Part shown: in pieces, positions 3,847-62,538 of the stretch
Layout: every line of letters begins with the position of its first letter
How positions within the stretch are numbered: position 1 is the first letter of the stretch
Assembly (NCBI GenBank): GCA_041650615.1
Contig: JBAZKU010000001.1
Coordinates: 185,216 to 249,215 of the forward strand
Length of the DNA stretch: 64,000 bases
Direction of reading: 5' to 3'
Source: Minisyncoccota bacterium
GTDB lineage: Bacteria > Patescibacteriota > Minisyncoccia > Phycocordibacterales > UBA9973
Position numbers and translations under genes: made by a program
The notes under the pieces: generated by a model
The model's database searches: none
The model's input: only the letters and a program-made list of their open reading frames with translations
Told to the model about the DNA's origin: nothing

Positions 3847-5202
3847 TTAGCTTGAAAGCAAATCTATATTATCTTGGATTGTAGCTTTTAATTTCTGAAC
3901 GCTTTTACTATAAGAACAAGAAGTTCCTCCAGAACCATAATATTTACAAGCTGCTTTATTTTGCGCGCTGGTGCTGCTACCTACTGCCCCTAGATCAGTA
4001 AGATACATAGCCGAGGCCATGAAAGCATCCCTAGGAGACCATGGATTAGCATTGTATCCCAAAATTTCTTTCAAACGATTTTCAAAAATTTTCCAAGTTG
4101 AAGGAATAAATTGCGCGGGTCCCATTGCTCCTCCCCATCCTACAACTCCAGTAATCGGACAAGATACAGCCGTTTTAAAAGCATTAAAACCCAGACTATT
4201 GGTAATATCCAAAAATATAGGCACATCGCGAGTGGGATGCATTACTTTGGTAAAAGGTGTCCCCGTATTTTTACCCACTCCTGCTCCGGTATTCGGATCT
4301 GTTAAATAACATTGGCCAACATTCGCGCCAAGATTGCTTTCTTGAGTAAGAATAGCGAGCAGGAATGCAGGATCAATGCCGAATTTAGTTTTAGCCTCAT
4401 TTGCATATTCCAGCGCTGTTCCAAATTCTATTTTTTGGGAAATACCCGCTAAAGGAAATAAAGCGCTACGAATACTATTTGCTTTTGCTTTTTTTTCAGC
4501 CGCCAATTTTTGATAAGCGGCTTCTTTGTCTTTGGAAATAGCTAAAAGCTCTTTGGTTGTAGCTTCAGTTTGCGCAACTTTTTTTTGAGCATTTTCCAGT
4601 TCTGCTTTAGCGTCTGTTTCCGCATCTTGTTTTTTTTCTAAATCGGTTTTAGCAACTTCAGTCTGCACTTTTACTCCATTAATAAGGTCAACAGAAGTTT
4701 TTATAGCTTGTTGAATAGAATTATAAGATTCCAAATCACTGTAAAAATCGGAAATACTATTATCGGAAAGAATTAAATTTACTAAATTTTGATTATCAAA
4801 TTCATTTGTATTCCTAATAAGTTGAGCTAATGATTCATATTCTCTGTCAATTTTTTTAGAAAGCGACTCAATCGCTTTTACTTTATCATTAATATCCACC
4901 TTTAACTGAGCAATCACCAACGTTCTGGTTTTTATTTTTGTTTTTAAAGTATTAATTTGGCTATTTAAGTAATCAACATCACCTTTTAAGGTCCCGGTTT
5001 GTTTTTGTTGGATTGCCTGTTTTTCCAATAAATCCGCATATTCTGCTTCTAATTGATCAAGTTGGTTCTGACAATATGCCTTATCTGCAGAACTAGAAGA
5101 AGTATTTAAAGTAAGACAGTCAAAAGCAGCGTCTGTTTTGTACGCCACAAAAACCAACATAAAAGAAATAGAAACAAAAACTATGGCAATTTTCTTAACC
5201 AT
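3847..5202 (-). CDS. secreted coiled-coil protein with C-terminal lytic transglycosylase-like (SLT) peptidoglycan hydrolase domain
   Basis: N-terminal signal/TM, long heptad-repeat region, and a C-terminus with ILTQESNLG..QCYLTD..GPAQFIPSTW resembling SLT-domain catalytic motifs. Confidence 0.5.
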   Translation of the reverse strand: MVKKIAIVFVSISFMLVFVAYKTDAAFDCLTLNTSSSSADKAYCQNQLDQLEAEYADLLEKQAIQQKQTGTLKGDVDYLNSQINTLKTKIKTRTLVIAQLKVDINDKVKAIESLSKKIDREYESLAQLIRNTNEFDNQNLVNLILSDNSISDFYSDLESYNSIQQAIKTSVDLINGVKVQTEVAKTDLEKKQDAETDAKAELENAQKKVAQTEATTKELLAISKDKEAAYQKLAAEKKAKANSIRSALFPLAGISQKIEFGTALEYANEAKTKFGIDPAFLLAILTQESNLGANVGQCYLTDPNTGAGVGKNTGTPFTKVMHPTRDVPIFLDITNSLGFNAFKTAVSCPITGVVGWGGAMGPAQFIPSTWKIFENRLKEILGYNANPWSPRDAFMASAMYLTDLGAVGSSTSAQNKAACKYYGSGGTSCSYSKSVQKLKATIQDNIDLLSS

Positions 5203-5222: not shown

Positions 5223-5954
5223 TTATTTTTCTTCTCCTTTTTCTTCAGTCGCTTCCGTGGCAACTTCAACTTCTCCTCCTTCTTCCTCTTTCTTGCCTTT
5301 CTTTTCAACTTCAATTTCAGACAAATCCGGAGGTGCTACAACTTCTTCTTTTTCTTCTACTTGAAGAACTATGGAAGCTACAACATCATGCTCATTCGCA
5401 ATAACAATAACTCCGGCTGGTAATTTTATATCGGAAATAAAAATCTGGTTTTCTACTGTTTCAAGTTTGGATATGTCAACTTCCAGACTATGCGGAAGAT
5501 CTTTTGGCAATGCTTCAACTTCCACTTCATGAAGAACCTTAACAAGATTCCCTAATCCATTTTTTACAGCATTGGAAATGCCGATAAATTCAAGCGGAAC
5601 TTTAACTTTTATCTTCTTATTCATATCCACAACCAGAAAATCCACATGTATCGGTTCTTCCGTTACCGGATGCACCTGCACTTCGTGAATAAGCGCGTCA
5701 ACCCCGTTAGAGATAGAGGGTCGCTGCGAGCCCTCGCGATCTCTAACGGGGTCAACATTATTATCACCTATAGCTATTTTTATAGTGGAAGATTCTCCAG
5801 CTTCCCGCCAGATTTTTTTAAAATCAACAATTGATATGGAAATAGAAGTAGCAGTCTTGCCTGTTCCATAAAAAACAGCAGGGATTTCCCCTGTTTTCCT
5901 TAAAGTATCCAAATTAATACCTTCATTTCTCTTTTTAGCCTTGATTACAAACAT
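5223..5954 (-). CDS. rplY: 50S ribosomal protein L25 / general stress protein Ctc, with an 18-aa in-frame insertion and acidic C-terminal tail
   Basis: L25 N-domain (AVFYGTGK..) and beta-barrel motifs (HVDFLVVD). The insertion PVRDREGSQRPSISNGVD is encoded by the palindromic element at 5702..5751. Confidence 0.8.
   Translation of the reverse strand: MFVIKAKKRNEGINLDTLRKTGEIPAVFYGTGKTATSISISIVDFKKIWREAGESSTIKIAIGDNNVDPVRDREGSQRPSISNGVDALIHEVQVHPVTEEPIHVDFLVVDMNKKIKVKVPLEFIGISNAVKNGLGNLVKVLHEVEVEALPKDLPHSLEVDISKLETVENQIFISDIKLPAGVIVIANEHDVVASIVLQVEEKEEVVAPPDLSEIEVEKKGKKEEEGGEVEVATEATEEKGEEK
5702..5751. mobile_element. MITE-like element inside rplY: TIRs ccccgttagagat/atctctaacgggg around a GC core, flanked by a gtcaa/tcaac duplication
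   Basis: 13-bp perfect TIRs at 5702..5714 and 5739..5751. The core agagggtcgctgcgagccctcgcg is GC-rich. Element plus TSD is 54 nt, a multiple of 3, and is translated. Confidence 0.75.
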
Positions 5955-6950: not shown

Positions 6951-8426
6951 TTATTTTAGCAATTTTTTCAGTGTTTCAATAACAATTTGCGGATTCGCGC
7001 TACCCTTGCTTTCTTTTATAACTTTTCCAACTAGAGACATTATAGCATTTTCTTTGCCAGCTTTATATACGGCAACAACTTCAGAGTTTTCTGAAATTAC
7101 TTTCTCCACGACAGCTTTAATTACACTTTCATCGTTTTTCTGCAATAAACCTTTTTCTGTAGCAATTTTGAGTGGAGACTCATTTTTTAATACAATTATC
7201 GCTAAAATATCTTTCGTTACTCGAGATGAAATTTTACCCTCGGCAGCAAGATTTATCAGTTCGGCAAAGTTTTCAGCATTCGGACGTTGGACGTCTGAAT
7301 TATTCTTTTTAAGACCTAAGTAATCAGAAGTAATGTAATTAGAAGCAAGTTTTACTTTCTCTTGTTCTTTTAAAATTTCAGATACTTCTTCAAACCATTG
7401 ACCCAATTCTTTATCATTAATGTAACTTTCTATATCCTCATCTTTAATTCCAAAATCTTTTTTATATCTCGCGCGTTTTTCTGCCGGTAGTTCCGGTAAT
7501 TCTTCTTTTATTTTTTTCAAATCAAAAGCTTCGTGTAAATACATTTTGGGTAAATCCGGTTCCGGGAAATACCTATAATCATGACTTGATTCTTTTTTTC
7601 TTTGAGAAAATGTTTTTTGCTTCCCATCGTCCCATCCCCTGGTTTCCTGCACTATTTCGTTTTCTTTTCCATCCTCCAAAAGTTTTACCATTCTATCCAA
7701 TTCAAATTTAATCGCTTTTTCAACACTCTTAAACGAATTTAAATTTTTCACTTCTACCTTCGTACCCAATTTATTTTTATCTTCCGAAACTGAAATGTTT
7801 GCTTCCACTCTCATCTCGCCTTTTTCCATATTCGCTTCGGACACTTCTAGATACCAAAGGATAAGCTGTAATTCTTTGGCAAAATCGGATGTGGTTTTAG
7901 CGGCGCTTTCTGCATCATCAAAACTATGAGGCTCAGTAACAAGTTCCATTAATGGCACACCTGCACGATTAAAATCAACAAGAGAATAACCATTTTCCCA
8001 CATGTCAGACATGTGAGTTTCCACATGTCTGACATGTGGGAAATCTATATGTTTATTATTAGCTGTGTCTTCTTCTAAATGAATACGAGTAATGTCAAAA
8101 TCAGCCAATTTTCCGCCGAAAACTATCGGATATTTATATTGTGAAATCTGAAAGCCTTTTGGGATGTCAGGGTAAAAATAATTTTTGCGATCAAATTCGG
8201 TAAAATCCGCAATTTTTCCACCAATAGCCAATCCAACTTTTATGACATTTTCTATCGCTTTTTTATTGATTACCGGCAAAGCCCCTGGGTGAGCCATACA
8301 AACAGGACAAATATTTACATTCGGTTTTTCTTCGTCTGGGTCATTCTTACAATCACAAAACATTTTCGTCTGCGTTTTCAACTCCGCATGTACTTCCAAA
8401 CCAATTGTTGGGTAATACTTACTCAT
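6951..8426 (-). CDS. gatB: Asp-tRNA(Asn)/Glu-tRNA(Gln) amidotransferase subunit B
   Basis: GLEVHAEL, FCDC..CPVC, GYSLVDFNRAGVPLMELV, and a C-terminal GatB/YqeY domain. Contains an in-frame perfect hairpin insert at 7998..8040. Confidence 0.9.
   Translation of the reverse strand: MSKYYPTIGLEVHAELKTQTKMFCDCKNDPDEEKPNVNICPVCMAHPGALPVINKKAIENVIKVGLAIGGKIADFTEFDRKNYFYPDIPKGFQISQYKYPIVFGGKLADFDITRIHLEEDTANNKHIDFPHVRHVETHMSDMWENGYSLVDFNRAGVPLMELVTEPHSFDDAESAAKTTSDFAKELQLILWYLEVSEANMEKGEMRVEANISVSEDKNKLGTKVEVKNLNSFKSVEKAIKFELDRMVKLLEDGKENEIVQETRGWDDGKQKTFSQRKKESSHDYRYFPEPDLPKMYLHEAFDLKKIKEELPELPAEKRARYKKDFGIKDEDIESYINDKELGQWFEEVSEILKEQEKVKLASNYITSDYLGLKKNNSDVQRPNAENFAELINLAAEGKISSRVTKDILAIIVLKNESPLKIATEKGLLQKNDESVIKAVVEKVISENSEVVAVYKAGKENAIMSLVGKVIKESKGSANPQIVIETLKKLLK
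7998..8040. repeat. 43-nt perfect hairpin (two 19-nt arms of cccacatgtcagacatgtg around a 5-nt loop) in frame inside gatB
   Basis: Arms are exact reverse complements, and each arm is also internally palindromic. Encodes about HVRHVETHMSDMWE, which is absent from typical GatB. Confidence 0.8.
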
Positions 8427-8434
8427 ATAACAAA

Positions 8435-9487
8435 TTATACCTTTTTCTTTAAAATTTTCACTAATTCATCTTTGAGAGTTTTTACCGATTTATCGTCATA
8501 TAAAGAAAGCGCAAAAACTTTTTTGGGCCTGCCTGCGCAGGCAGGAATCTTCTCAAATTCTTTTTTCTTTTTGTCTATGATTTTTTCATTTTCTACCATG
8601 TCAGATTTTGTAAGAATAATAATTTCATCTTTTTGGGATAGGCCTTCTTCTCCCAAATCTAAATTCTTGTCATATTTTTCCAATTCCTTTCTTACAACCT
8701 TATAATTTTTCATCATCATAGATAAATTTCCCGCCCCGTAGGAAGCTTGCTTTCCTTCGGGGTCAAACGATATCAGATGCGCAATCATTTTAGTTCGTTT
8801 TATATGTCGTAAAAATTTAACACCAAGTCCCTTTCCCGTATTTGCTCCTTCTATCAACCCTGGGATATCGGCAATCGTGTATCCGTAAAAATCGCCCAAA
8901 TTCGGGTCAAGCGTAGTAAATTCATAATCTCCTATTTTTGCCTCAGCGTTTGTTATGACATTGAGCAATGAAGATTTACCGGCATTGGGCAATCCAACTA
9001 ATCCAATATCCGCAAAAAGTTCCAACTCTATATGAAAATTTCCATGTTCTCCTTCCATTCCCGGCCGCCATTCTTTTGGAGTCGTATTGGTAGAACTTTT
9101 AAAATGTTCATTGCCAAACCCCCCATATCCGCCTTTCAAAAGCAAAACTTTTTGCCCTTCTTCCAGTAATTGCCATTGCTCATCCGTTTCCAGGTTAGTG
9201 ATAATGGATCCTATCGGCAATTCTAAAAAAAAGTCATTCCCTTTTTTGCCGTGTAAACTTTTTTTACCTCCATCTTCTCCTCGTCCGGCGCTAAAACTTT
9301 TTTTGGCTTTGTATTTTGAAAGTATATGCACATCGCGGACAGCTTGCGCATAAAAATCTCCGCCACGTCCACCGTCGCCTCCTGCCGGTCCGCCTTTGGG
9401 CACAAATTTTTCTTGTCGCCAGCGAACTACTCCGTCGCCACCGCGACCCGCTTCTGCGTATATTTTTATTTCATCTATGAAGGCCAT
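8435..9487 (-). CDS. obg: GTPase Obg/CgtA
   Basis: Obg fold N-terminus (GGDGGRGG) and G-domain (GLPNAGKSSL, DIPGLIEGA). Carries two in-frame palindromic inserts at 8528..8545 and 8734..8762. Confidence 0.9.
   Translation of the reverse strand: MAFIDEIKIYAEAGRGGDGVVRWRQEKFVPKGGPAGGDGGRGGDFYAQAVRDVHILSKYKAKKSFSAGRGEDGGKKSLHGKKGNDFFLELPIGSIITNLETDEQWQLLEEGQKVLLLKGGYGGFGNEHFKSSTNTTPKEWRPGMEGEHGNFHIELELFADIGLVGLPNAGKSSLLNVITNAEAKIGDYEFTTLDPNLGDFYGYTIADIPGLIEGANTGKGLGVKFLRHIKRTKMIAHLISFDPEGKQASYGAGNLSMMMKNYKVVRKELEKYDKNLDLGEEGLSQKDEIIILTKSDMVENEKIIDKKKKEFEKIPACAGRPKKVFALSLYDDKSVKTLKDELVKILKKKV
8528..8545. repeat. 18-nt perfect GC palindrome cctgcctgcgcaggcagg in frame in obg
   Basis: Self-complementary. 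Encodes PACAGR near the Obg C-terminus. Confidence 0.7.
8734..8762. repeat. 29-nt imperfect palindrome ccccgtaggaagcttgctttccttcgggg (copy 1) in frame in obg
   Basis: Second copy at 60127..60156. Encodes PEGKQASYG. Confidence 0.75.
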
Positions 9488-15380: not shown

Positions 15381-16713
15381 ATTTCTTCTCCAACCACTCC
15401 TTATCTTGGCGAACGAGAAGCTCTGATTTTTTTTCTTTGTCAAAAAGTACAGCTTCTACTGCCCGTTCCATGCGCATACCCTGCGAACCTTTAATAAGTA
15501 TAAAATCATTTTTTTGAATAAAGGTTTTCAAGAACTCCCCTGCTTCCCGCGAATTTAAAAATTCAAAAATACCCGCCTTGACTCGCGAAGACTCATCAAC
15601 GCGAGGCAGGTTTTTTTTATTCATTCCTGCTTCCATTGCGCCTTCTTTTATTTTTTCTGCCCGAGGACCAACTGTAATAAGTATGTCAGCATTCTCTTTT
15701 GCAATTTTGCCAATATTTTTATGAGCTTCTTCCGTATGACGACCAAGTTCCAACATGTCACCTAAGACAGCGATTTTTCTCCCCGAACTTTTTAATTCTC
15801 CTAAAGTTTTAAGCGCAAATTCGCAAGCAAAAGGAGAAGAATTATAAGAATCATCTATTATTAAAGAATCATTTACTCCCTTCAAAAGGCGCATACGTCC
15901 AGGCGGAACATTGTAATTTTTAAGTTTATTAATGGCTGTCAACGTGTTTAATTTTAAACCGGAAGAAAGCGCAAGCGCTCCAAGAGATGCGTAAATGTGA
16001 TTTTTGCCGAATACTCCTTCAATAATAACCGGCAAACTGTTTCCTTCTTCATCTATTCTAAAAGTTAAACCTTCCGGTATTCCCTCTCTATTATATAAAA
16101 TACTGTCGCTTGAGCCTTTTATATCGGAACCTTCCTTAAAACCAAAAGTCACAATGCGATTCTTTGTTTTTTCCCTCATTTCAGAAACTATCTCATCGTC
16201 ATTATTTAATATTAAAAGTCCGTCTTTTTTAAGAGTTTTTATGAGTCCACTTTTTTCTTCTACAAGATGTTTGCGCGAATCAAAAAATTCAATATGTACG
16301 GGAGTTTCCCCTATGGCCGTAATTATAACCGCATCAGTTCTAAGCCATGAAGCAGTAGAACGCATATCGCCTGGTTTTCCGATACCTACTTCAAGCACCA
16401 ACCACTTGGGATATTTATGAGGCCAAATAAAAAGCCAAAACCCTTTTAAAATATTTGAAATCCATGTAAGGGGATTATTCCATCCGTTGGGAACACCTAA
16501 AATAGTGAGAGGTAATCCTATTTCACTGTTATAACTTTTTTCACTTTTACGAACATAGGAAATACCGGAAATCACGGCGAAAACCGCATCTTTCGTGGAA
16601 GTCTTGCCGACCGATCCCGTGATAGCAATAATCTTAGGCTTATACTTCCAAAGTACCAGTCGTGATTCTATTCTTAAAATATAAACTAAAGGTTTTTTGA
16701 TTGCAGTTCTCAT
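15379..16713 (-). CDS. murF: UDP-N-acetylmuramoyl-tripeptide--D-alanyl-D-alanine ligase
   Basis: ATP-binding ITGSVGKTSTK and Mur ligase central and C-terminal domains. Carries an in-frame GC-rich insert at 15572..15610. Confidence 0.9.
   Translation of the reverse strand: MRTAIKKPLVYILRIESRLVLWKYKPKIIAITGSVGKTSTKDAVFAVISGISYVRKSEKSYNSEIGLPLTILGVPNGWNNPLTWISNILKGFWLFIWPHKYPKWLVLEVGIGKPGDMRSTASWLRTDAVIITAIGETPVHIEFFDSRKHLVEEKSGLIKTLKKDGLLILNNDDEIVSEMREKTKNRIVTFGFKEGSDIKGSSDSILYNREGIPEGLTFRIDEEGNSLPVIIEGVFGKNHIYASLGALALSSGLKLNTLTAINKLKNYNVPPGRMRLLKGVNDSLIIDDSYNSSPFACEFALKTLGELKSSGRKIAVLGDMLELGRHTEEAHKNIGKIAKENADILITVGPRAEKIKEGAMEAGMNKKNLPRVDESSRVKAGIFEFLNSREAGEFLKTFIQKNDFILIKGSQGMRMERAVEAVLFDKEKKSELLVRQDKEWLEKK
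15572..15610. repeat. GC-rich repeat, family cccgcctWgact..gcgaggcagg, in frame in murF
   Basis: cccgccttgactcgcgaagactcatcaacgcgaggcagg. Encodes about NLPRVDESSRVKAG. Confidence 0.7.
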
Positions 16714-29542: not shown

Positions 29543-29692
29543 ATGAGTGAAGAAAAATGCCCTGTTTGTGGGAATAACCCTTGCACTTGTCCACCAGCTC
29601 CAGAAACCCCTGTTCAACCAACTCCAGAAACCCCTACCCAACCAACTCCAGAAACCCCTACCCAACCAACTCCAGAAACCCCTATTCAATAG
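29543..29692 (+). CDS. small Cys-rich peptide (49 aa) with four tandem PTPETP(T/V/I)Q repeats
   Basis: Sequence MSEEKCPVCGNNPCTCPPAPETPVQ(PTPETPTQ)x2PTPETPIQ. The DNA carries 4x24-nt tandem repeats at 29594..29689. A clean terminator follows. All three frames are open because of the repeat; this frame has the ATG and the CxxC..CxC motif. Confidence 0.45.
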   Translation: MSEEKCPVCGNNPCTCPPAPETPVQPTPETPTQPTPETPTQPTPETPIQ

Positions 29693-29704
29693 AAAGAAAA
29701 ATAA

Positions 29705-29731
29705 AACAGCCCCTTCAACGGGGCTGTTTTA
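29705..29731 (+). terminator. intrinsic terminator
   Basis: cagcccc-ttcaa-cggggctg followed by TTTT. Confidence 0.8.
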
Positions 29732-29794
29732 TTGAAAATAGAATTTCAGGCAAAAATCTTGCGATAAATATTAAAAAAAGCTAATCTATTATAA

Positions 29795-44150: not shown

Positions 44151-45992
44151 TTAATTGTTTTCCGTGCGCATCATTTTTAGGAACACGTCTTGCGGGATGT
44201 TTACTCGCCCGCGTTCTTTCATTTTCTTTTTACCTTTCTTTTGTTTTTCGCGAAGTTTCATTTTGCGAGTGATATCTCCTCCATACATATGCTGAGTAAC
44301 GTCTTTTTTCATACCGGAAAGAGTGCGAGAAGAAATAATCCGCCCTAAAGCTTTGCCTTGGATTTTCAAAGTAAACATTTGCCGAGGTAAGATACTTTCT
44401 AATTTAATAACTGCTTTTTCTGCTTCCTCCCCTGCTCTCTTTTTAGCGATAACTCTGGAAAAAGCCGGTATAACTTCATTGGCCACCAGAAGATCAAGCC
44501 GAGTGACATTTGCCTCGCGCATGTCATCCATTTCATAAGAGATAGACCCATAACCGGATGAAACACTTTTTAATTCATCAAAAAAATTGCGCATAAGCTC
44601 GCGCAACGGCATCTTGACGGAAATGGACGAGCGATTATTTCCAAAATTATCTGTTTCGCCTATCTCCGCTTCGTGATCAAAAAGAAGTTGCATAATATTA
44701 CCGAGATATTTTACCGGGGTGATTATTTTTAATTTTACCCATGGTTCCATTACGGTTTCTATCTCTCCATCATCTGGAAAGTGATATGGAGAATAGACTT
44801 TTTCTTTTTTGCCTTTTTTTGTCGTGACTTCGTAAGTGATAGAAGGCGTAGTTATGACCAATTTTAAATTAAATTCTCGTTTCAATCTCTCCGTAATAAT
44901 TTCCAAATGAAGCATTCCCAAGAAACCACACCTGAAACCGCGTCCGAGAGACCCGCTTGATTCTTCTTCATAAGAAAAAGAAGAGTCAGAAAGTTTTAAT
45001 TTTCCCAAAGCCAGTTTGAGTTCTGAAAAATCGTCCGCATTTTCTGGAAAAACAGATGCCCAAACAACAGGCATAGGCTGCATATACCCCGGCAGCGCAG
45101 GCAACGGATTTTTTTCTTTGGTAATAGTATCTCCGACAGAAGCTATTCCGGGTCTTTTTATGCCCGTAACAATATAGCCTGTATCCCCCGCTGAAAGAAA
45201 ATCGCGCAGAGTTTCTTCCGGCGAAAAAGTGCCAACTTCCAAAGAATTGAATTTTTCGCCCGAGACTGAAAAAATCAAACTTTCTCCTTTTCTGACTGTG
45301 CCGTCCAATAATCTGATAAAAATTATCACTCCTCTATGATTTGAATATTTAAAATCAAAAACAAGCGCGCGTAAAATGTTGTCCCTCGACGAGTTCGCCT
45401 CGCTTCCGCTAAGGTGAAGCGGGTAACTTTCCCTGGGAGATGGAATACGTTTTACAATTTCATTTAAAAGATTTTCCACTCCCTCGCCTGTGCGTCCGGA
45501 AACTAGAAGTATCTCATTAGGATTGCAACCTAGAAGGTCTATGACCTCTTTTTTTACCTCTTCTACCCGAGCCAATGGCGAATCAATTTTAGAGAGCACT
45601 GGGATGATTTTAAGGCCTCCCTCGCGCGCCATATTAAGCGTAGTAAGGGTTTGAGCCTGCACACCCTGTGTTGCATCAACCAGTAAAATAGAGCCTTCTA
45701 CGGCCTTTAAAGCGCGAGAAACTTCGTAAGAAAAATCTATATGCCCAGGGGTATCTATAAGGTTTAAAACGAAGGATGGTCCTTCGTTTTTAGGTGTATA
45801 TTCCATTCTGACAGGTTGCATTTTAATAGTAATCCCGCGTTCGCGTTCAAGTTCCATAGTATCAAGAACTTGGTCCCGCATTTTACGTTCAGGAATGGTA
45901 TGCGTAATTTCCAACATCCTGTCCGCCAAAGTGCTTTTTCCATGATCTATGTGCGCTATAATACTAAAATTTCTGATATGCCTTAAATCCAT
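44151..45992 (-). CDS. lepA: elongation factor 4 (LepA)
   Basis: IRNFSIIAHIDHGKSTL G-domain and LepA-specific C-terminal domain. Confidence 0.95.
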   Translation of the reverse strand: MDLRHIRNFSIIAHIDHGKSTLADRMLEITHTIPERKMRDQVLDTMELERERGITIKMQPVRMEYTPKNEGPSFVLNLIDTPGHIDFSYEVSRALKAVEGSILLVDATQGVQAQTLTTLNMAREGGLKIIPVLSKIDSPLARVEEVKKEVIDLLGCNPNEILLVSGRTGEGVENLLNEIVKRIPSPRESYPLHLSGSEANSSRDNILRALVFDFKYSNHRGVIIFIRLLDGTVRKGESLIFSVSGEKFNSLEVGTFSPEETLRDFLSAGDTGYIVTGIKRPGIASVGDTITKEKNPLPALPGYMQPMPVVWASVFPENADDFSELKLALGKLKLSDSSFSYEEESSGSLGRGFRCGFLGMLHLEIITERLKREFNLKLVITTPSITYEVTTKKGKKEKVYSPYHFPDDGEIETVMEPWVKLKIITPVKYLGNIMQLLFDHEAEIGETDNFGNNRSSISVKMPLRELMRNFFDELKSVSSGYGSISYEMDDMREANVTRLDLLVANEVIPAFSRVIAKKRAGEEAEKAVIKLESILPRQMFTLKIQGKALGRIISSRTLSGMKKDVTQHMYGGDITRKMKLREKQKKGKKKMKERGRVNIPQDVFLKMMRTENN

Positions 45993-46026
45993 ATTTCAAA
46001 TATAACAGAACTCTCTTCCCCACACC

Positions 46027-46060
46027 AGTGGGGGTTGTTAAAGTTCCTCCTGAGGAGCAA
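46027..46060. repeat. paired hairpins ccccacaccagtggggg and ctcctgaggag covering the murJ stop and C-terminal codons
   Basis: GC-rich palindromes in an AT-rich context. The second encodes the murJ C-terminal APQEEL. Confidence 0.5.
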
Positions 46061-47717
46061 CAAGAACTTTCGTGCGCCAAAATTTTGTCTTGAAAACTTT
46101 TATAATATCTCTTAATTCTTCACTCTTCAAAAGATACAAGACCAAAACACCGGCGCCAATACCTAAAATTCCGGAAATAAATCCCTGTAAGAAAATTCCC
46201 CAACCGGTGGTAGTGTCAAAAATCGGTGAAAAAATGTTCAAACCTATATAAGTTACAAGCCCGATAAAAAACGAAGCACCCAAACTTTGGAAAGAGGTTT
46301 TAGAGATAAAAGATTCGTGTTCCATAAAATCTCTTCTGACAAAATACCAATGCAAAATAAAATTCAAAATAGTACCGATAGAATATGCCAGCGGCAACAT
46401 TAACATTTCCGTGCCAACAATATCTGAAACTTTCAGTAAAGATTCTATAAAATAACGGAAAAGAGCAAAAGTTTCAAAGAGATAGAGAAGTATATAAGCT
46501 AAAAATATAATTAAAATAGAACAAAATAAATTAACCATTAACGGACGCTTGGTATCCCCAGCCGCATAATAAACGCGGGATAAAAGAGCGGTCATCCCTT
46601 GCGCCACAGTTGAGACAGCAAAAATCGCTAGAGCTGCTGCCACCAGACGGGTATCGTCCCAAGAAAAAGATCCGGAACCAAGCAATACACGTACAATCTG
46701 AGCGCGAAGGACGATAAATAAAAATGTTACGGGAAGCGACCAAAATATTATTTGCCTGGCCGTGGATTTTAAATGTTTTTTAAATTCATCTTTTTTTTCA
46801 CAAGCAAAAGATTTTACCAATGTTGGAAAAGCGGCTACGGCAAAAGATATTCCAATTATATTAAGTGGTACTGATTGAAGATTAAAGGAAAAATTAAAAA
46901 TTGAAATTGAACCGCTCGGCAAATAAGAAGCAAAGGCAATGATTGAAATAAGAGCAATACTGTTAAAAGCAAGACCTAAAGTTCTGGGAAGTGAAATAAG
47001 TGCTACACGTTTGATTTCTTTAAAGTTTATAGAAAAAGAAAATTTTGGTACAAATCCGCACCCAAAGGAAGCAAACACTTGCACTAGACAATGCATAAAC
47101 GCTCCCAAAACAACGCCTAAGACCAAACCGTTGATTCCAAAAATCGGATACAAAAAAACAACTCCTGCGATGATGCCAAGATTATAAAAAATAGGGCTTA
47201 AAGAATATACAAAAAACTTGTGAAAAAGTTGAGTAACCGTACCAAAAAGACCTGAAAGACCCATCAAAATCGGGGAAAGCAACATTATCCTTGAGAGTAA
47301 AACTACTTTTGCCTGCATTACTGGCGTAAACCCCGGCGCAATAAAAGATGTTAAAAAAGGCATAATAAAAAAAGCGATAATAGCCGCAAAAACCATAGTT
47401 GCAAAAAAAACAGTAAAAATATTATTAAAGAATTTGCGTGCGCTGTCTGTAATTTCTTCTCCATTCATTTTTTCCACAATGAATGGAATAATCACGGTTA
47501 TAGAAGCAAGAGAGGCGACGGAAATAAAGATTAAATCCGGTACACGAAAAGCGGCATAATAAGCATCAAGTTGTGGCGATGGACCGATAAAGTGCGCAAT
47601 ATTTCTATCACGAAAAAGCGCTAAAATTTGAGAAAGAAGAGTAAAACAACCCATTAGGAGCGCCGCTTGGTTTATATTCCCATATTCCTTACTGAAAATT
47701 TTCAAGATCTTCTGCAT
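46038..47717 (-). CDS. murJ: lipid II flippase MurJ (MviN)
   Basis: 14-TM MOP-superfamily protein with a typical MurJ N-terminus (NINQAALLMGCFTLLSQILALFRDRNIAHFIG). Confidence 0.85.
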   Translation of the reverse strand: MQKILKIFSKEYGNINQAALLMGCFTLLSQILALFRDRNIAHFIGPSPQLDAYYAAFRVPDLIFISVASLASITVIIPFIVEKMNGEEITDSARKFFNNIFTVFFATMVFAAIIAFFIMPFLTSFIAPGFTPVMQAKVVLLSRIMLLSPILMGLSGLFGTVTQLFHKFFVYSLSPIFYNLGIIAGVVFLYPIFGINGLVLGVVLGAFMHCLVQVFASFGCGFVPKFSFSINFKEIKRVALISLPRTLGLAFNSIALISIIAFASYLPSGSISIFNFSFNLQSVPLNIIGISFAVAAFPTLVKSFACEKKDEFKKHLKSTARQIIFWSLPVTFLFIVLRAQIVRVLLGSGSFSWDDTRLVAAALAIFAVSTVAQGMTALLSRVYYAAGDTKRPLMVNLFCSILIIFLAYILLYLFETFALFRYFIESLLKVSDIVGTEMLMLPLAYSIGTILNFILHWYFVRRDFMEHESFISKTSFQSLGASFFIGLVTYIGLNIFSPIFDTTTGWGIFLQGFISGILGIGAGVLVLYLLKSEELRDIIKVFKTKFWRTKVLVAPQEEL

Positions 47718-50030: not shown

Positions 50031-52619
50031 CTAACTTAGTATGTTAATAACCCTATTTTTTACATAAATGACTCTTTTTATATCTTTATTCAGATGTTTT
50101 AAAACATTTTCATCTGTAAGAGCTTTTTTCTTCACTTCATCTTCTATCTCATCCATTTGGATCAAAATTTCAGATCTGACTCTACCATTTACTTGCACGG
50201 CAATTTTTATTTCCTGGTCTTTTACTAAATCCTCATCCCATTTTGGCCAAGCTGAAAGATGAATACTTTTTTTCTCTCCTAAATCATACCAAATATTTTC
50301 AGTAATGTGTGGAGCAAATGGAGCTAAAATTTGCAAGAATTTTTTGTAATCTTCCGCGTCTATATTTTCCACTTTTTCCATTTCTGTCGCGAGTATCATC
50401 ATGGCGGAAATCGCAGTATTAAAACGCATATTTTCTATATCTTCCGAAACTTTTTTAATTGTTTTGTGTAGTAGCTTTTTCAAAGATTGCGAAGCAGAAC
50501 TTTTTTCGGCATACGCAATATTAGGTTCGTGAACCACATTCAGGTTCGAGTGCGAGCCGTGAAAAAGTTGCTGCTTCGCAATCTTTTCTGCTATTCTCCA
50601 AACTTTTTCTATAAATCTTCTAGAACCAATAATACTTTCCGTGCTCCAGGCAACTGCTTCCTCAAACGGTCCCATAAACATTTCATAGACACGCAAAGTG
50701 TCTGCGCCGTAAGTTTTAACAATATCGTCTGGATTTACGACATTACCTAAAGATTTTGACATTTTTACCCCTCCTTCGCCCAAAATCATCCCATGAGAAG
50801 TTCTTTTCTGATAAGGTTCTACTGTTGGCACAAGTTTTAAATCATATAAAAACTTATGCCAAAAACGTGAATACAATAAATGAAGAGTGGTGTGTTCCAT
50901 TCCCCCGTTATACCAATCAATCGGCGTCCAATATTTTAATTTTTTCTTATCTGCAAAGATTTTATTATTTTTAGGGTCCGTATATCTTAAATAATACCAA
51001 GAGCTTCCAGCCCAGTTCGGCATCGTGTCTGTTTCCCTTTTTGCTTTGCCGCCGCATTTCGGACATTTTGTATTTACCCATTTTGAAATGGAGGCAAGCG
51101 GAGATTCGCCCGTATCTGTCGGTTTATAACTTTTTACTTCTGGTAATTTTATCGGCAAGTCCTTATCCGGCACCGGTACCAGTCCGCATTTTTCGCAATT
51201 AACCAACGGTATCGGTTCACCCCAGTATCTCTGTCTTGAAAAGACCCAATCTCTTAATTTGAATTTTGTGACAATTTTCCCACCGACAAATTCCGTGATT
51301 TTTTTTCGGGCTTCTTCAGAACCCATGTAATCAAATTGTTTAGAAGAATGTATTAAAATACCTTCCCCATCATAAAAATCTTTTGGTTCTCCTTCCAATA
51401 AATCTGCATCAGTAATAACCTGTCTTATCGGCAAATTGTATTTCTTAGCAAAAGCAAAATCTCTTTCATCATGAGCAGGAACTGCCATAATGGCGCCTGT
51501 GCCATAATCCGGCAATACATAGTCAGCAATAAAAACAGGCACTTCTTCATCATTTGCCGGATTTATTGCTTTAATGCCTTTTAACTCCACCCCCGTTTTT
51601 TCTTTTTCATCAGCCGTTCTTTCAATTTCAGATTTTTTCTTTGCCTTTTTTATATATTCTTCAACTTCTTTTTTATTTTTAACTTGCCCTAAAAATTTTG
51701 TCACCAACGGATGTTCAGGAGCAAGTACGACATAAGTCGCTCCAAAAAGCGTATCCGCGCGCGTGGTGAATACTTTTATTTTAAAAGATTGCGAAGCAGT
51801 GCTTTTTTCGGCATACGCAATATTAGGTTCGTTAACCATATTCAGGTTCGAGTGCGAGCCGTGAAAAAGCATCTGCTTCGCAATCTTTATCTTAAAAACA
51901 ATCTCGCTTCCTTCCGACTTTCCTATCCAGTTTCTTTGCTGAATTTTTACCCGCTCCGGATAGTCAACCAAATCCAAATCTTTATCCAATCTATCCGCGT
52001 ATTTTGTAATTGCCAGCATCCATTGTTCTTTTTCTCTCTTTTCCGTCTTACTTCCGCAACGTTCGCAAATTCCGCCTGACGCCTCCTCGTTCGCCAAGCC
52101 GATTTTACAGGAAGGGCACCAATTTATATAAGATTTCGCTTTATATGCCAAACCTTTTTTGAAAAATTGCAAAAATATCCATTGCGTCCATTTATAATAT
52201 TTAGGGTCGGTAGTATTTATTTCCCGGGTCCAATCAAAAGAAATGCCAAGCATTTTTATTTGCCTACGGAAATTGTCCGTATTTTTTTTAGTTACAATTG
52301 CCGGATGAATACCTGTTTTAATAGCATAATTTTCTGTTGGTAAACCAAAGGCATCCCAACCGATAGGATAAAGTACATTTAAACCTTCCATTCTTTTTTT
52401 TCTAGAAATAACATCCATTCCGATATATGGCCTCGGATGTCCTACGTGCAGTCCATCGCCGGATGGATAAGGAAATTCAATTAGGGCGTAAAATTTACGC
52501 CCTAATCGCCCCGTAGCGAGTTTTGCTCCACTACCGGGGCTCGTGGTATTGTAAATTCCGCTCTTCTCCCATTCTTTTTGAACCCTTAATTCGATTTTTT
52601 TATGATCATATTCCTTCAT
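50031..52619 (-). CDS. leuS: leucine--tRNA ligase carrying two 35-aa in-frame copies of a repeat element plus an N-terminal insert
   Basis: HVGH (PYPSGDGLHVGHP) and KMSKS motifs. Start trimmed to MKEYDHKK. Two near-identical segments ..LFHGSHSNLN(V/M)V(H/N)EPNIAYAEKS.. disrupt conserved blocks. Confidence 0.9.
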   Translation of the reverse strand: MKEYDHKKIELRVQKEWEKSGIYNTTSPGSGAKLATGRLGRKFYALIEFPYPSGDGLHVGHPRPYIGMDVISRKKRMEGLNVLYPIGWDAFGLPTENYAIKTGIHPAIVTKKNTDNFRRQIKMLGISFDWTREINTTDPKYYKWTQWIFLQFFKKGLAYKAKSYINWCPSCKIGLANEEASGGICERCGSKTEKREKEQWMLAITKYADRLDKDLDLVDYPERVKIQQRNWIGKSEGSEIVFKIKIAKQMLFHGSHSNLNMVNEPNIAYAEKSTASQSFKIKVFTTRADTLFGATYVVLAPEHPLVTKFLGQVKNKKEVEEYIKKAKKKSEIERTADEKEKTGVELKGIKAINPANDEEVPVFIADYVLPDYGTGAIMAVPAHDERDFAFAKKYNLPIRQVITDADLLEGEPKDFYDGEGILIHSSKQFDYMGSEEARKKITEFVGGKIVTKFKLRDWVFSRQRYWGEPIPLVNCEKCGLVPVPDKDLPIKLPEVKSYKPTDTGESPLASISKWVNTKCPKCGGKAKRETDTMPNWAGSSWYYLRYTDPKNNKIFADKKKLKYWTPIDWYNGGMEHTTLHLLYSRFWHKFLYDLKLVPTVEPYQKRTSHGMILGEGGVKMSKSLGNVVNPDDIVKTYGADTLRVYEMFMGPFEEAVAWSTESIIGSRRFIEKVWRIAEKIAKQQLFHGSHSNLNVVHEPNIAYAEKSSASQSLKKLLHKTIKKVSEDIENMRFNTAISAMMILATEMEKVENIDAEDYKKFLQILAPFAPHITENIWYDLGEKKSIHLSAWPKWDEDLVKDQEIKIAVQVNGRVRSEILIQMDEIEDEVKKKALTDENVLKHLNKDIKRVIYVKNRVINILS
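50482..50586. mobile_element. 105-nt palindromic element in leuS, copy 1: 25-bp inverted flanks aaagattgcgaagcag.. around a 55-nt conserved core
   Basis: 16-bp perfect IR aaagattgcgaagcag/ctgcttcgcaatcttt. Length is a multiple of 3 and is translated. Confidence 0.85.
51784..51888. mobile_element. 105-nt palindromic element in leuS, copy 2 (same orientation, about 1.3 kb from copy 1)
   Basis: About 93% identical to 50482..50586, with the same IR flanks. Confidence 0.85.
52490..52545. repeat. GC-rich imperfect palindrome (ccccggtag..ctacgggg) encoding an extra SPGSGAKLATGRLGRK segment near the LeuS N-terminus
   Basis: A GC island in frame. The segment is absent from canonical LeuS N-termini. 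Confidence 0.45.
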
Positions 52620-55513: not shown

Positions 55514-56971
55514 TTATTCATCTATTATCTCAAAATCGCTTCCTGGTATACTTGAAACAGATTTTCTATTGCGATTGCGGATAAAATAGGTTGCGCTTGC
55601 ACTAATTCCAAGAAAAGCAAATAAGCCGAAAATTCCGTATATAAAATTATCTTTCGCATTGGAAATATTCTCTTCACTCTTTACAGCTACTGCTCCTAAA
55701 TTTTCAGAAGAAACTTGCGGAGTTTCTTTGGGTGTTTCTATTGTTGGTTTAGCCACTGCAATGTTTTTATTGGTATTTGACTCCGATATTTTTGATGTAG
55801 GGGGTAAATAATTAAAGATAATTTCCCCTTGCGGATTTAGTAATTTTAAAGCGTTTTTATCAAAAACAGAAAAACCGGTAATTTTAGACGATAAAATGAT
55901 TTTCTTTTTTGGCCCTAAAATTGTGTTATTAGGTAAAGTAAAAATTTTTCCATTTCCCGCAAGAATCCATTTTGAAAGATCGGCATCATATGAAGTATTA
56001 TTTAAAATTTCCACAAAGAAATCTTTTTCATCCCCGACGCTGGATATTGAAATATCCGCCTTTATCACTTTAATAATTATCTTGTCGGACGCGTCAGGAT
56101 TTAGAGAATTATTATTTTGAAAATATTCCAAGGCGACAGTATATTCTCCTTCATAGAGAAAGATATGCGTGAGTTTTGTCGGATTATTGACTCCTGTTTC
56201 TTTTGAATCACCATCTCCAAAATTCCAGAAATATTTGCCATAAGAAAGCGGTTCGTTAGAATATCCGGTAGCAGTGGCACTAAACTCTATCGGTATTCCC
56301 ATAAAAGAAAACGTTTTGGTGGAAATTTTTGTTTTAATTTTTGAAGTTTCAGTAGTCTTTGTTTTTGCAGTTATTGTTGAATCTGAGGAATCGGCATTTC
56401 CGGCCACATAATTATCGCTTGATGTTGCGCTGTCATCAGTTGTATTATTATCGGTACTATTTGTTTGCGAAATTTGATTTTCCGCTTTTGGCGTAGGAGA
56501 AGAAACAGTCCAACTGCTTCCTATCTTTTGAATACTTTCCCCAACAATTGGATTAGGCGCGCAAGTTCCATCACAATCACTGGCACTTCCCCAACCAATT
56601 TTATCAACTATTTCTTGATCTGAATTCTTTAATTGAATTGTATTTGATTCGGTAAGGGTTAAATTATCCAAAATAATATCGGCATTATCCATTGCACTTT
56701 TTGAAATTAAAAAATAGCTATTAGCATTTATTGTCTTACTTTCAAAATGAGTTTTTGAAACGAGAGAACCAAAACTACTACCTGTCTGAGTTTTTCTTTG
56801 AATATACCAATTAGTTAAATCAACTACTGAATCACCTGAATTATAAAGTTCAATAAATCTTTCTTCTGTGGGATTTAATTGAACCTCATTAATTATCACA
56901 CTTGCTTGGGCAATAGTGCACCCAAAAAACAAAAAAATTCCTGTCAAAATAGGGATTATCTTCCTAGGCAT
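55514..56971 (-). CDS. secreted lamin-tail-domain (LTD) protein with C-terminal membrane anchor
   Basis: Signal peptide; VIINEVQLNP..FIELYN LTD signature (a second LTD near FVEILNNTSY); Ser/Thr-rich linker; C-terminal TM helix. Confidence 0.6.
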   Translation of the reverse strand: MPRKIIPILTGIFLFFGCTIAQASVIINEVQLNPTEERFIELYNSGDSVVDLTNWYIQRKTQTGSSFGSLVSKTHFESKTINANSYFLISKSAMDNADIILDNLTLTESNTIQLKNSDQEIVDKIGWGSASDCDGTCAPNPIVGESIQKIGSSWTVSSPTPKAENQISQTNSTDNNTTDDSATSSDNYVAGNADSSDSTITAKTKTTETSKIKTKISTKTFSFMGIPIEFSATATGYSNEPLSYGKYFWNFGDGDSKETGVNNPTKLTHIFLYEGEYTVALEYFQNNNSLNPDASDKIIIKVIKADISISSVGDEKDFFVEILNNTSYDADLSKWILAGNGKIFTLPNNTILGPKKKIILSSKITGFSVFDKNALKLLNPQGEIIFNYLPPTSKISESNTNKNIAVAKPTIETPKETPQVSSENLGAVAVKSEENISNAKDNFIYGIFGLFAFLGISASATYFIRNRNRKSVSSIPGSDFEIIDE

Positions 56972-57012
56972 AGTTTATTTAAATTATTTTTATAATATGA
57001 TATGATTATAGC

Positions 57013-58014
57013 ATGAAAAAAATAGATTTTCTTGCTATTGGGGATATTGTGGTAGACGCATTTATAAAAATAAAAGACGCGCATGTAAATTGCAAATTGG
57101 ACACAAATGCCTGCGAACTCTGTTTTCGTTTTAGAGATAAAGTGCCTTATGAATCGGTAAATGTAATTCCGGCTGTCGGCAATAGCGCAAATGCCGCAGT
57201 TTGCGCTGCTAGGCTCGGGCTGAATACGGCTTTTATGACAAATATGGGCGATGATCAGAATGGAAAAGACTGCTTGGCAGTATTGGAAAAAGAAAAAATT
57301 GACACAACGTTTGTAAAAATAGAAAAAAATAAAAGTACGAATTACCACTATGTCCTTTGGTATGATATTGACCGCACTATTTTGGTAAAACATCAAGAAT
57401 ATGAACGCGAATGGCCAGACACTAAAGAAGCCAACACTCCAGCTTGGATTTATTTAACTTCTTTAGGAGAAGATTCCCTGCCTTTTCATAATGAGATATC
57501 AAATTATTTAAAAAAACATCTGGAAGTAAAATTAGCTTTTCAACCGGGCACTTATCAAATGAAATTTGGCACCGAAAATTTAAAAGATATTTATGCGTGT
57601 ACGGAAATCTTCTTTTGCAATCTTGAGGAGGCTGAAAGAATCTTGAAAATTGAAAATAAAGATGTTTTAACACTATCAAAAGGCATTGCGGCTTTGGGCC
57701 CCAAAATGGTTGTAATAAGTGACGGACCGAAAGGCGCTTATTTTTATAAAGATGGAGAATTATGGCATAATCCCATTTATCCGGATATTGCTCCACCCAC
57801 AGACCGCACCGGAGCCGGAGATGCTTTTTCTTCCACTTTTACCGCAGCTTTGGCTTTAGGAAAATCACCCCTTGAGGCATTTTCTTGGGGACCGATAAAT
57901 TCAATGTCCGTAATCCAATATGTCGGAGCGCGAGAAGGATTGCTAAATCGTGAAAAATTGGAAGAGTATTTAAGGACCGCCCCGGAAAGTTATAAGGTTA
58001 AAAAAATAAGCTAA
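57013..58014 (+). CDS. PfkB-family carbohydrate kinase
   Basis: Ribokinase-like fold with the C-terminal DRTGAGDAF motif. Confidence 0.8.
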   Translation: MKKIDFLAIGDIVVDAFIKIKDAHVNCKLDTNACELCFRFRDKVPYESVNVIPAVGNSANAAVCAARLGLNTAFMTNMGDDQNGKDCLAVLEKEKIDTTFVKIEKNKSTNYHYVLWYDIDRTILVKHQEYEREWPDTKEANTPAWIYLTSLGEDSLPFHNEISNYLKKHLEVKLAFQPGTYQMKFGTENLKDIYACTEIFFCNLEEAERILKIENKDVLTLSKGIAALGPKMVVISDGPKGAYFYKDGELWHNPIYPDIAPPTDRTGAGDAFSSTFTAALALGKSPLEAFSWGPINSMSVIQYVGAREGLLNREKLEEYLRTAPESYKVKKIS

Positions 58015-58018
58015 TTTT

Positions 58019-58249
58019 ATGCAAGAAGCATTACCCAAAACAGAAGAAGAAAAAATTATAGGCGAATTATTAAAGAAAAGTTCTGAACTTTATCTTGAGA
58101 CAAAAGAGCTTGAAAAAAAATTAAATAAAACAAACAGCGAAGAAACTAAAACGCTTATTAAAGAAGAAATTTTCAAATTAACAAAAGAAAAAAATAAAAT
58201 AAATATTCAAATCGGAAAAATACAATCTGACTTAAGAAATAAAAATTAA
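58019..58249 (+). CDS. small coiled-coil protein (76 aa)
   Basis: Charged heptad-repeat sequence; co-oriented with the kinase gene. Confidence 0.35.
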   Translation: MQEALPKTEEEKIIGELLKKSSELYLETKELEKKLNKTNSEETKTLIKEEIFKLTKEKNKINIQIGKIQSDLRNKN

Positions 58250-59250: not shown

Positions 59251-59255
59251 AAAAT

Positions 59256-60104: not shown

Positions 60105-60126
60105 CCTTTTTTTTCTTTGATTCTTG

Positions 60127-60156
60127 CCCCGTAGGAAGCTTGGCTTTCCTTCGGGG
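60127..60156. repeat. 30-nt imperfect palindrome ccccgtaggaagcttggctttccttcgggg (copy 2), just upstream of the tkt N-subunit start
   Basis: Near-identical to 8734..8762 in obg. Confidence 0.75.
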
Positions 60157-60174
60157 TTAGAATCAGTCAACATA

Positions 60175-61433: not shown

Positions 61434-61437
61434 AATA

Positions 61438-62529: not shown

Positions 62530-62538
62530 AGAATCAAA

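Follow-up and report, generated by a model that had tools for sequence, protein, structure and literature searches.

The gatB and obg genes in a 64,000-nucleotide stretch of DNA from a Minisyncoccota bacterium (contig JBAZKU010000001.1, positions 185,216 to 249,215; hereafter, the window) carried hairpins of dispersed families. We consider it probable that these hairpins form a system like the repetitive extragenic palindromic (REP) elements, REP doublets (REPINs), and REP-associated tyrosine transposases (RAYTs) of other bacteria, and that the copies survive in frame as translated loops. The evidence came from the anatomy of the hairpins, their status as insertions, their dispersal, their orientation and length bias, compensatory changes in their stems, a recombination patch, and a transposase gene with flanking hairpins. 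An earlier sequence-only reading had pointed to palindromes in gatB, obg, and other genes of the window, and their dispersed-repeat nature and tie to a transposase went unrecognized there. The host genes, their hairpins, a related copy near the transketolase gene, and the transposase gene were as follows.

6951..8426, minus strand: gatB, host gene (Asp/Glu-tRNA amidotransferase subunit B; Pfam GatB_N and GatB_Yqey).
8435..9487, minus strand: obg, host gene (GTPase; Pfam GTP1_OBG and MMR_HSR1).
7994..8043, minus strand: perfect 22+6+22 hairpin in gatB, an inverted doublet (REPIN-like), in frame after EEDTANNKH; fold z = -10.2.
7280..7298, minus strand: single small palindromic unit TCGGACGTTGGACGTCTGA at gatB "site 2," peptide SDVQRP; fold z = -2.5.
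8730..8762, minus strand: 33-nt element CCCCGAAGGAAAGCAAGCTTCCTACGGGG plus CGGG tail (sense strand) in obg, encoding PEGKQASYGAG, a precise in-frame insertion; 57 bits with a covariance model.
8528..8545, minus strand: exact 18-nt palindrome CCTGCCTGCGCAGGCAGG at the second obg site, encoding PACAGR, of uncertain family; fold z = -1.8.
60123..60156, minus strand: second copy of the obg element, 34 nt with a CAAG tail, between rpe and the transketolase N-subunit gene; fold z = -6.3.
L222 10001-10654 (window-equivalent 66475-67128): Y1/RAYT-like transposase gene P0172, between dnaE and pth.

The window was AT-rich (32-40% GC) and came from an ultra-small groundwater bacterium of the Candidatus Paceibacterota/Nomurabacteria lineage (Patescibacteria); its nearest GatB relatives bore the names Nomurabacteria or Paceibacterota. 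The window GatB was identical to a protein on a 598,563-bp public contig, and the same protein was present on two contigs across NCBI, JGI, and ENA. The comparison set consisted of 80 related genomes with gatB, most with obg adjoining; the proteins were aligned, and 79 of the 80 gatB genes were full-length. Fetched loci are designated by L numbers. The palindromes in gatB, at the first obg site, in leuS, and in the gene for ribosomal protein bL25 were in-frame insertions without a counterpart in most orthologues.

An inverted-repeat scan of the window, as suggested in the sequence-only reading, revealed an excess of perfect stems over shuffled sequence (16 versus 4.7 at ≥9 bp, 5 versus 0.47 at ≥11 bp, and 3 versus 0.03 at ≥13 bp). 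Stable local folds were also in excess, with 62 windows at ≤ -18 kcal/mol against 8.5 expected. The hairpin elements studied here spanned 19-51 nt, and an Rfam scan of the window returned only tRNAs, with no hairpin element matching an Rfam family. The earlier statement that a large fraction of housekeeping genes contain palindromes was right about palindromes inside genes; the fraction amounted to about 7 of about 55 genes. Across nine gene families in the 80 genomes, 24% of 78 lineage-specific insertions of at least 6 amino acids folded with z < -3, compared to 3% of control segments.

The gatB hairpin had a folding energy of -40.1 kcal/mol, and none of 200 shuffled sequences was equally stable. 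Previously described as a perfect 19+5+19 hairpin at 7998..8040, it proved to be real but larger. Each arm had the form CACATGTC[A/T]GACATGTG, a small palindrome in its own right, and the second copy was inverted; the predicted peptide was DFPHVRHVETHMSDMWEN. Most GatB proteins read ...EEDTANNKH-DRGD-FSL... at this site, the window protein had 18 additional residues (491 amino acids versus about 473-476 in most relatives), and 28 of 40 orthologues were gapped there in the alignment. About 25-30 of the 80 Nomurabacteria had other insertions in the same loop, and at least seven of the insertions in relatives were perfect or near-perfect 18-25-bp hairpins with a different sequence (hairpins of this kind were found in L002, L006, L009, L016, L046, L218, L220, and L221). 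Hairpins occurred at the identical gatB codon in separate assemblies from different studies, and the gatB open reading frame was uninterrupted over the insertion site in all 79 full-length relatives. Comparison with Thermotoga GatB (3AL0_B) indicated that the site is a variable loop. In an AlphaFold 2 model, the predicted local distance difference test score was <50 at residues 124-152, which make up the insert; there were few other short low-scoring segments, and the rest was mostly confident.

The stems of the gatB hairpins changed while pairing was kept. Those of the window, L220, L221, and L016 aligned without gaps over 22 pairs, with 97.7% of cells paired, and five of the 22 pairs had changed on both sides among the four orthologues. 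The coordinated changes sometimes spanned all four quarter-arms, and the main stems of the gatB-loop hairpins had zero G.T pairs. Their absence points to a process at the DNA level, or to recent copies, more than to selection on RNA alone. Inverted doublets were also found in gatB of L006, L046, L016, and L221 and in uvrA of L127. The single unit at gatB site 2 was the arm unit of the site 1 doublets in L006 and L046, and site 2 of many relatives held hairpins with other stems. Decay was seen in L033, whose gatB retained a single arm of the L009 hairpin, and removal of exactly 33 nt recovered the ancestral peptide in L020 gatB.

A near-identical strain with an empty window gatB site was sought, and the closest GatB was only 81% identical. 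A filled and an empty allele were found in another lineage, on two Hainich groundwater contigs with gatB alleles that were 98% identical in DNA. One allele had a 51-nt perfect palindrome where the other had GATAGAGGAAAT, and nearly all of the remaining differences were inside a patch of about 125 nt around the hairpin site. This patch appears to be a short conversion tract from a diverged donor, and it is compatible with either direction of change. The patchy phylogenetic distribution of the hairpins would thus be due to short-patch recombination that swaps filled and empty alleles.

A separate double hairpin, TCCGCCnAAGGCGGA-CCAGCCTCnGGCTGG, encoded SA[KEQ]GGPASGW around gatB residues 290-305 in L012, L039, L011, and L046 and also occurred in the unrelated gene MYG1 (residues 37-46) in L023 and L020. 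Its half-site TCCGCCnnnGGCGGA was present in the window at 1592 and 49933.

The obg element was present twice in the window. The 29-nt palindrome CCCCGTAGGAAGCTTGCTTTCCTTCGGGG at 8734..8762 and its twin at 60127..60156 had both been noticed before and were confirmed; the twin was 30 nt, with one extra G, and none was expected in shuffled sequence. Excision of exactly 33 nt from obg recovered the conserved residues F-E-N-L-S, and obg of L002 had the same element in a decayed form with two uncompensated substitutions. A covariance model of the element recovered only the two known copies in the window; it missed the leuS variant described below, its training being too narrow. The 18-mer at the second obg site was exactly as described earlier but weak by itself, since about 4.7 perfect stems of ≥9 bp were expected by chance in 64 kb. 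The length of this site varied between species, and in L001 and L042 it held a CCCCG..CGGGGCAAG element in antisense orientation.

In the case of the transketolase copy, the length of 34 nt was not a multiple of three, and the flanks contributed 7 further base pairs, which made it an outlier among the copies. The sequence-only reading had placed this copy 20 nt upstream of the transketolase start. The distance was 22 nt, and the upstream placement held only for ATG 60104; the open frame beginning at ATG 60173, the start used in a public gene call (305 amino acids), contains the copy. The true start was ambiguous, and the copy may be in a 5' untranslated region or an N-terminal extension.

A pattern scan of metagenome contigs listed more than 120 exact-pattern copies of the obg element, 77 of them with distinct flanks. 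The 80 loci returned had GC contents of 26%-56%, and most were AT-rich (33-47%). The sense consensus was (A)CCCCGAAGGAAAGC-[loop]-GCTTCCTACGGGG-CARG, in which an A.A mismatch was conserved, one A was bulged, and the apical parts varied with compensatory changes; the apical loops were frequently UUCG, UACG, or UCCG closed by C-G. Fifty-nine of 81 copies were in open reading frames of at least 150 amino acids, 56 in the sense and 3 in the antisense orientation, and 50 of the 56 sense copies were 33 or 36 nt long, the commonest lengths. The hosts were unrelated housekeeping genes (topA, smc, pnp, glmS, dnaG, gatB, cysS, ligA, uvrA, uvrC, tsaD, and tig), as well as several aminoacyl-tRNA synthetase genes. 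Because the family used all three sense frames (PEGK..SYGAG, PKES..LPTGQ, and PRRK..FLRG) plus noncoding sites, its conservation was at the nucleotide level, and we rejected a conserved functional peptide motif on the same grounds. CRISPR or DNA-uptake repeats were rejected because there were no arrays and the sequences were variable. Around the 77 copies, we found no target-site duplication or flank complementarity beyond chance; the flanks showed only a preference for A at -1 and the conserved 3' CARG.

Other units were dispersed as well. Units with a GTC-S-GAC core were repeated in gatB, uvrA, and other genes, ..GGCCTTGCC.. hairpins were found in several genes and genomes, and ACTTGGAGGCCTTGCCTCCAAGT was identical at 23 of 23 nt in fmt of the window's genome and gatB of L001, where it was in a different frame. 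The inserts examined were in frame and stop-free, with lengths that were multiples of three (an L116 insert with an in-frame TGA is described separately), and the peptides predicted from translation included ..FDPEGKQASYGAGNLS.. and ..HVRHVETHMSDMWENGY... The proposal that palindromic DNA in housekeeping genes is read through by the ribosome was thus supported by frame conservation, and the inserts are probably translated as extra surface loops.

Viral contigs yielded nothing in a scan with the AGACGTTGGAC..GTCCAACGTCT pattern, and a scan with CCCCGTAGG..CCTTCGGGG gave 17 matches, mostly by chance in GC-rich contigs. Three giant-virus metagenome bins (L086, L089, and L094) had AT-rich contigs (32-34% GC) with GC-rich palindromes such as CCCCGTAGGGGCGGCGGACCCCTTCGGGG, which were unrelated to the obg family. 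In L116, the start of an exonuclease III gene was tandemly triplicated along with a copy of an obg-type element (positions 520-760; 106-nt unit). At 1059-1151, the same gene contained a palindromic insert of 93 nt, the ends of which were inverted over 19 nt (ATTCCCCTCTTGAGGGGTG), and the insert had a TGA codon in frame. Possible explanations are that the gene is a pseudogene or that TGA codes for an amino acid in this organism.

A candidate transposase was found next to matching hairpins. The first probe consisted of approximate sequences and was used solely to locate open reading frames; the conclusions are based on the frames found. Genes for Pfam Y1_Tnp proteins above the cut-off were present in seven fetched loci (L012, L013, L048, L125, L130, L131, and L168), and the proteins were 217-242 amino acids long. 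Their best NCBIfam match was NF047646 REP_Tyr_transpos (E = 3e-20 to 2e-9). In five of the seven loci (L012, L013, L048, L130, and L168), the same hairpin was located on both sides of the Y1 gene, and the two copies were oppositely oriented wherever loop asymmetry permitted their orientation to be told. The L130 flanking hairpin, CGAGGTTCGACCTCG, was nearly identical to the uvrA unit GAGGTCGGACCTC and grouped with the gatB units of L016 and L221. When the L012 protein was used as the query, more than 7,500 homologues were returned, and all organism-named matches were from Patescibacteria lineages. A single-sequence PDB search with the transposase gave no match. In L131, stand-alone GIY-YIG nuclease open reading frames of 84-85 amino acids (1323-1577 and 3967-4224) flanked a region with the Y1 gene and an obg-type element.

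One homologue, P0172, was encoded on the 598,563-bp contig that also bears the window's GatB. Positions 1-7526 of L222 were 100% identical to window positions 56475-64000, which places the P0172 gene 2.5 kb outside the window, past its right end. TACCCCATAGGTCTTGCCTATGGGGTA was located 21 nt before its ATG and CCCCATAGGCAAGACCTATGGGG was located 6 nt after its stop codon; the flanking hairpins were CCCCATAGGTCTTGCCTATGGGG and the inverse of the same sequence. No tnpB-like gene was found beside P0172, and the adjacent open reading frames (131 and 90 amino acids) had no Pfam match. The head CCCC[AG]TAGG occurred 6 times in 77 kb, compared to an estimated 0.3 or so expected, and all occurrences were within hairpin elements, namely those of obg, the transketolase copy, and the two P0172-flanking hairpins on both strands. 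On the antisense strand, the head was CCCC-GTAG-G/C in the obg, transketolase, and leuS elements and CCCC-ATAG-G in the P0172-flanking copies.

We suggest that the palindromes are copies of small nonautonomous REP/REPIN-type hairpin elements, which would likely be mobilized in trans by a RAYT-like single-strand-DNA tyrosine (Y1, HUH) transposase of the same genome, of the P0172 type. Most insertions would land in genes because the genome is almost wholly coding. The copies that persist would be those with a length that is a multiple of three, without stops in the frame used, and sited in tolerant surface loops, linkers, or gene ends, where transcription and translation would yield short loop peptides. 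An established copy could pass between strains, or be removed, via short-patch homologous recombination; it could keep its arms perfectly complementary through coordinated changes, or it could decay, by point mutation or loss of one arm, into an ordinary-looking loop insertion.

REP units are imperfect palindromes of 19-36 nt; in a REPIN, two such units are arranged as an inverted doublet and fold together into a long hairpin. The REP/REPIN-RAYT systems of Escherichia, Pseudomonas, and Stenotrophomonas resembled the system described here in several respects. The units are short imperfect palindromes, and compensatory changes in the stems distinguish one family from another; inverted doublets form a single long hairpin (as in gatB); a Y1/HUH transposase gene lies between two units in opposite orientation; and there is no target-site duplication. 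Intragenic copies provided a further likeness, as they are occasionally reported for REPs in other bacteria (PMC3733652). We found no report linking RAYTs or REPINs to Patescibacteria in the literature searched.

Several observations set this system apart from known REPs or weigh against our interpretation. The REP tag is a conserved, unpaired terminal GTAG (or CGTC), whereas here the tag was largely paired, inside a CCCC/GGGG clamp in the stem (CCCC-GTAG, or CCCC-ATAG in the transposase-flanking copies), and it was absent from the gatB type of hairpin. Most of the copies sampled were inside open reading frames (59 of 81 in the obg family), whereas REPs are mainly extragenic, and copy number looked low (two obg-family copies in the 64-kb window) against high numbers per genome for REPs; no second copy of the window's gatB hairpin was found in the 77 kb read. 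The Y1 proteins were distant from curated RAYTs, scoring 37-73 bits against a curated NCBIfam cut-off of 80, and PDB profile matches were weak (E = 0.006 for ISDra2 TnpA and E = 0.2 for E. coli TnpA-REP [4ER8]). The gatB hairpin was linked to transposase-flanking hairpins only via orthologues and other genomes, and its direct similarity to the flanking hairpin of its own genome was suggestive only. The Hainich pair displayed recombination and no clean insertion footprint; transposition by the Y1 enzyme was deduced from sequence. The sense and frame bias could come from protein-level selection instead of the insertion mechanism, and the UUCG, UACG, and UCCG loops of the obg family hint at selection on RNA, which a selfish-DNA model does not require. 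The host also differed, being a member of the Patescibacteria with a 598-kb contig. Because the tag, transposase distance, copy number, and intragenic location differ, we file the system as a variant of REP/REPIN-RAYT and not as a plain member.

Other known elements shared some of these features. Rickettsia palindromic elements (RPEs) are likewise dispersed palindromic repeats in frame in coding genes, including essential ones, at positions that the protein fold tolerates. RPE-1 is about 100-150 bp, compared to 19-51 nt here; the likeness is by description only, the hosts are different (Rickettsia versus Ca. Paceibacterota), and the system here includes a candidate transposase flanked by matching hairpins. 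PMC3733652 and PMC6649704 describe RPEs as tolerated, it is thought, as surface loops and as decaying over time. Mitochondrial genes of Nematomorpha contain long perfect inverted repeats in translated genes; their perfection has been argued to need active arm-to-arm conversion, they are gained and lost dynamically, and it has been proposed that they are parasitic (PMC6649704). The perfect arms of gatB hairpins that change together are similar. In Nematomorpha, however, the two arms are part of conserved protein-coding sequence and do not lengthen the gene, whereas the elements here were insertions in variable loops, in dispersed families tied to a transposase. A hairpin in lepA (45766..45790) may be of the Nematomorpha type.

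Mitochondrial GC clusters, double-hairpin elements, the repetitive hairpin-forming elements of sponges, and the "byp" bypass elements of Magnusiomyces are alike in being small GC-rich hairpins in AT-rich compact genomes, sometimes in coding sequence. These elements are organellar, and we know of no transposase for them. The invasion of AT-rich compact genomes by small GC-rich hairpins is reported in PMC2800124. The byps break the frame and are skipped, according to a study cited in PMC6649704, unlike the elements here, which kept the frame. IS200/IS605 elements consist of tnpA, usually with tnpB, and have distinct subterminal hairpins at the left and right ends; in contrast, P0172 had no tnpB-like neighbor, its flanking hairpins were one sequence inverted, and the NCBIfam IS200 model matched only at E = 0.008.

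We weighed three other explanations. Hairpins could arise and persist in place by template switching during replication (quasipalindrome correction). An imperfect inverted repeat in any unconstrained loop would then have one arm copied from the other, becoming perfect and longer without a transposase, as a side effect of how this lineage maintains its DNA. This would fit main stems that were perfectly Watson-Crick over 18-25 bp yet differed in sequence between lineages, coordinated changes on both arms or in all four quarter-arms, and the palindrome-within-palindrome layout, which is the expected product of inverted self-copying; it would also fit the perfect lepA hairpin, which shows almost no length change, and it is the argument made for the Nematomorpha coding palindromes (PMC6649704). 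However, local copying is unable to put near-identical sequences into unrelated genes and different genomes, it gives no account of the same hairpins bracketing a transposase gene, both arms of the gatB insert were foreign to the empty site, and some copies, such as that in L002 obg, decayed uncorrected. As a full explanation, template switching is in our judgment unlikely, although arm-to-arm conversion of this kind appears to be the best candidate for keeping the arms perfect, dispersal being beyond its reach. The hairpins could instead be functional RNA structures selected in mRNAs as stabilizers, RNase III sites, or pausing signals, with their spread reflecting regulatory recruitment. Pairing was indeed kept by compensatory changes, the sense bias was strong (56 to 3), one copy was just upstream of a possible start codon (transketolase), and the loops of the obg family were of the kind that is especially stable in RNA when closed by C-G. 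On the other hand, presence was patchy among close relatives and polymorphic between near-identical strains, the same loop held different elements by lineage, the same element was at unrelated positions in unrelated genes, decayed copies were present, and Rfam gave no family match. The main stems also had no G.U pairs, though selection at the RNA level would tolerate them. The UNCG-like loops and strong sense bias hint at an RNA-level role, but a required function is made less likely by the polymorphism, the decay, and the variety of positions occupied, and we regard RNA function as the source of these hairpins as quite improbable.

The third explanation is that the segments are removed or skipped (as an intron, an intein, or by translational bypass) or are assembly artifacts such as chimeric hairpin reads, since hairpin artifacts are known from amplified DNA. 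Nothing positive pointed this way, apart from the in-frame TGA in the 93-nt L116 insert. Intron, intein, and bypass were rejected because the frame was kept without stops, sense copies of the obg family were mostly 33 or 36 nt, and inteins and group I/II introns are far longer than these segments. An assembly artifact was rejected because hairpins recurred at the same gatB codon in independent assemblies from different studies; in addition, the identical GatB was on two contigs, and L222, from another assembly, was 100% identical over 7.5 kb. The sequence-only reading had treated the palindromes as neither introns, inteins, nor artifacts, and these results bear it out; we consider the opposite extremely improbable.

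The genomes of Patescibacteria are among the smallest and most gene-dense in bacteria, and the usual account is that they contain little mobile DNA. If the REP/REPIN-RAYT-like interpretation is correct, they carry families of tiny hairpin repeats plus a matching transposase, and the repeats would persist in essential translation and replication genes by being translated. REP/RAYT biology would then include a further phylum and a lifestyle that is mostly intragenic. Hairpin insertion would also be a concrete source for many unexplained short protein insertions in Patescibacteria, given that 24% of the sampled lineage-specific insertions were hairpins, and annotators and structure predictors should be cautious, as such loops may be repeat-derived. 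The hairpins also offer a natural system for studying how perfect palindromes are maintained in coding DNA. A bolder version, which we offer tentatively and hold to be rather doubtful, is that REP-like hairpins and their Y1 transposase are a long-standing resident system, mainly inside coding sequence, and one of the main origins of new loops inserted into essential proteins. The perfect arms of the hairpins would be kept by active conversion or by selection on the mRNA hairpin, with UNCG-capped stems affecting mRNA decay or translation, and the elements would be more than passively tolerated junk.

Hairpins were also found in the following genes of the window.

52480..52540, minus strand: two adjacent hairpins at the leuS N terminus, a CCCCGGTAGT..GCTACGGGG element and a 13-bp stem TTAGGGCGTAAA/TTTACGCCCTAA; fold z = -6.3.
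5701..5752, minus strand: hairpin ACCCCGTTAGAGAT..ATCTCTAACGGGGT in the bL25 gene, encoding VDPVRDREGSQRPSISNG; fold z = -7.4.
46018..46063, minus strand: two hairpins at the murJ 3' end, 46018..46034 past the stop codon and 46035..46063 overlapping the last codons.
45766..45790, minus strand: 11-bp perfect hairpin AAAACGAAGGA-TGG-TCCTTCGTTTT inside lepA (KNEGPSFVL), from the perfect-stem scan.

The leuS hairpins accounted for the N-terminal GC island that had been noted previously. They encoded SPGSGAKLATGRLGR, about 10 amino acids beyond the solved LeuRS structures (a 10-residue gap in 3ZIU_A), and the head of the element was CCCCGTAGC. The bL25 hairpin was a lineage-specific insertion among 53 orthologues, with 103 residues on 82 positions of the Pfam L25p profile. 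Both murJ hairpins, reported as C-terminal, were real, but only one of them overlapped the coding sequence. The lepA hairpin added little or no length, and a similar perfect ACGAAGGA-nnn-TCCTTCGT hairpin was found at the end of fmt in the same genome (L222 15135-15155).

Several other repeats were seen. A 110-nt direct repeat inside leuS (50477-50586 and 51779-51888, 93% identical) was in frame at two places in the protein, where it encoded about 36 amino acids (AKQ[MQ]LFHGSHSNLN..EPNIAYAEKS..ASQS); it resembled a larger repeat element, with a size nearer to that of RPEs. Another repeat of about 110 nt, 77-90% identical, was located at 1679-1790 and 62521-62633 and contained the hairpin GGATTTTTTGAAGCTTAAAAAATCC. 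A GC-rich motif, CCCGCCTTGACTC..GAGGCAGG, recurred at 305-352, 2213-2260, 15565-15612, 62086-62116, and 62750-62777; it had hairpin potential, and one pair was G.U only on the minus-strand transcript. A 24-nt tandem repeat, ACCAACTCCAGAAACCCCTACCCA, was present four times at 29593-29712; it would read as P/T/E-rich and ended at a strong terminator hairpin (29700-29733). Finally, many relatives (L002 8709, L009 9723, L016 11783, L033 11067, L034 11402, L038 11630, L041 11397, and L055 11995) shared the conserved hairpin AATAAAAaCTATGg..cCATAGtTTTTATT, which sequestered one gene's start codon and may be a translational control element.

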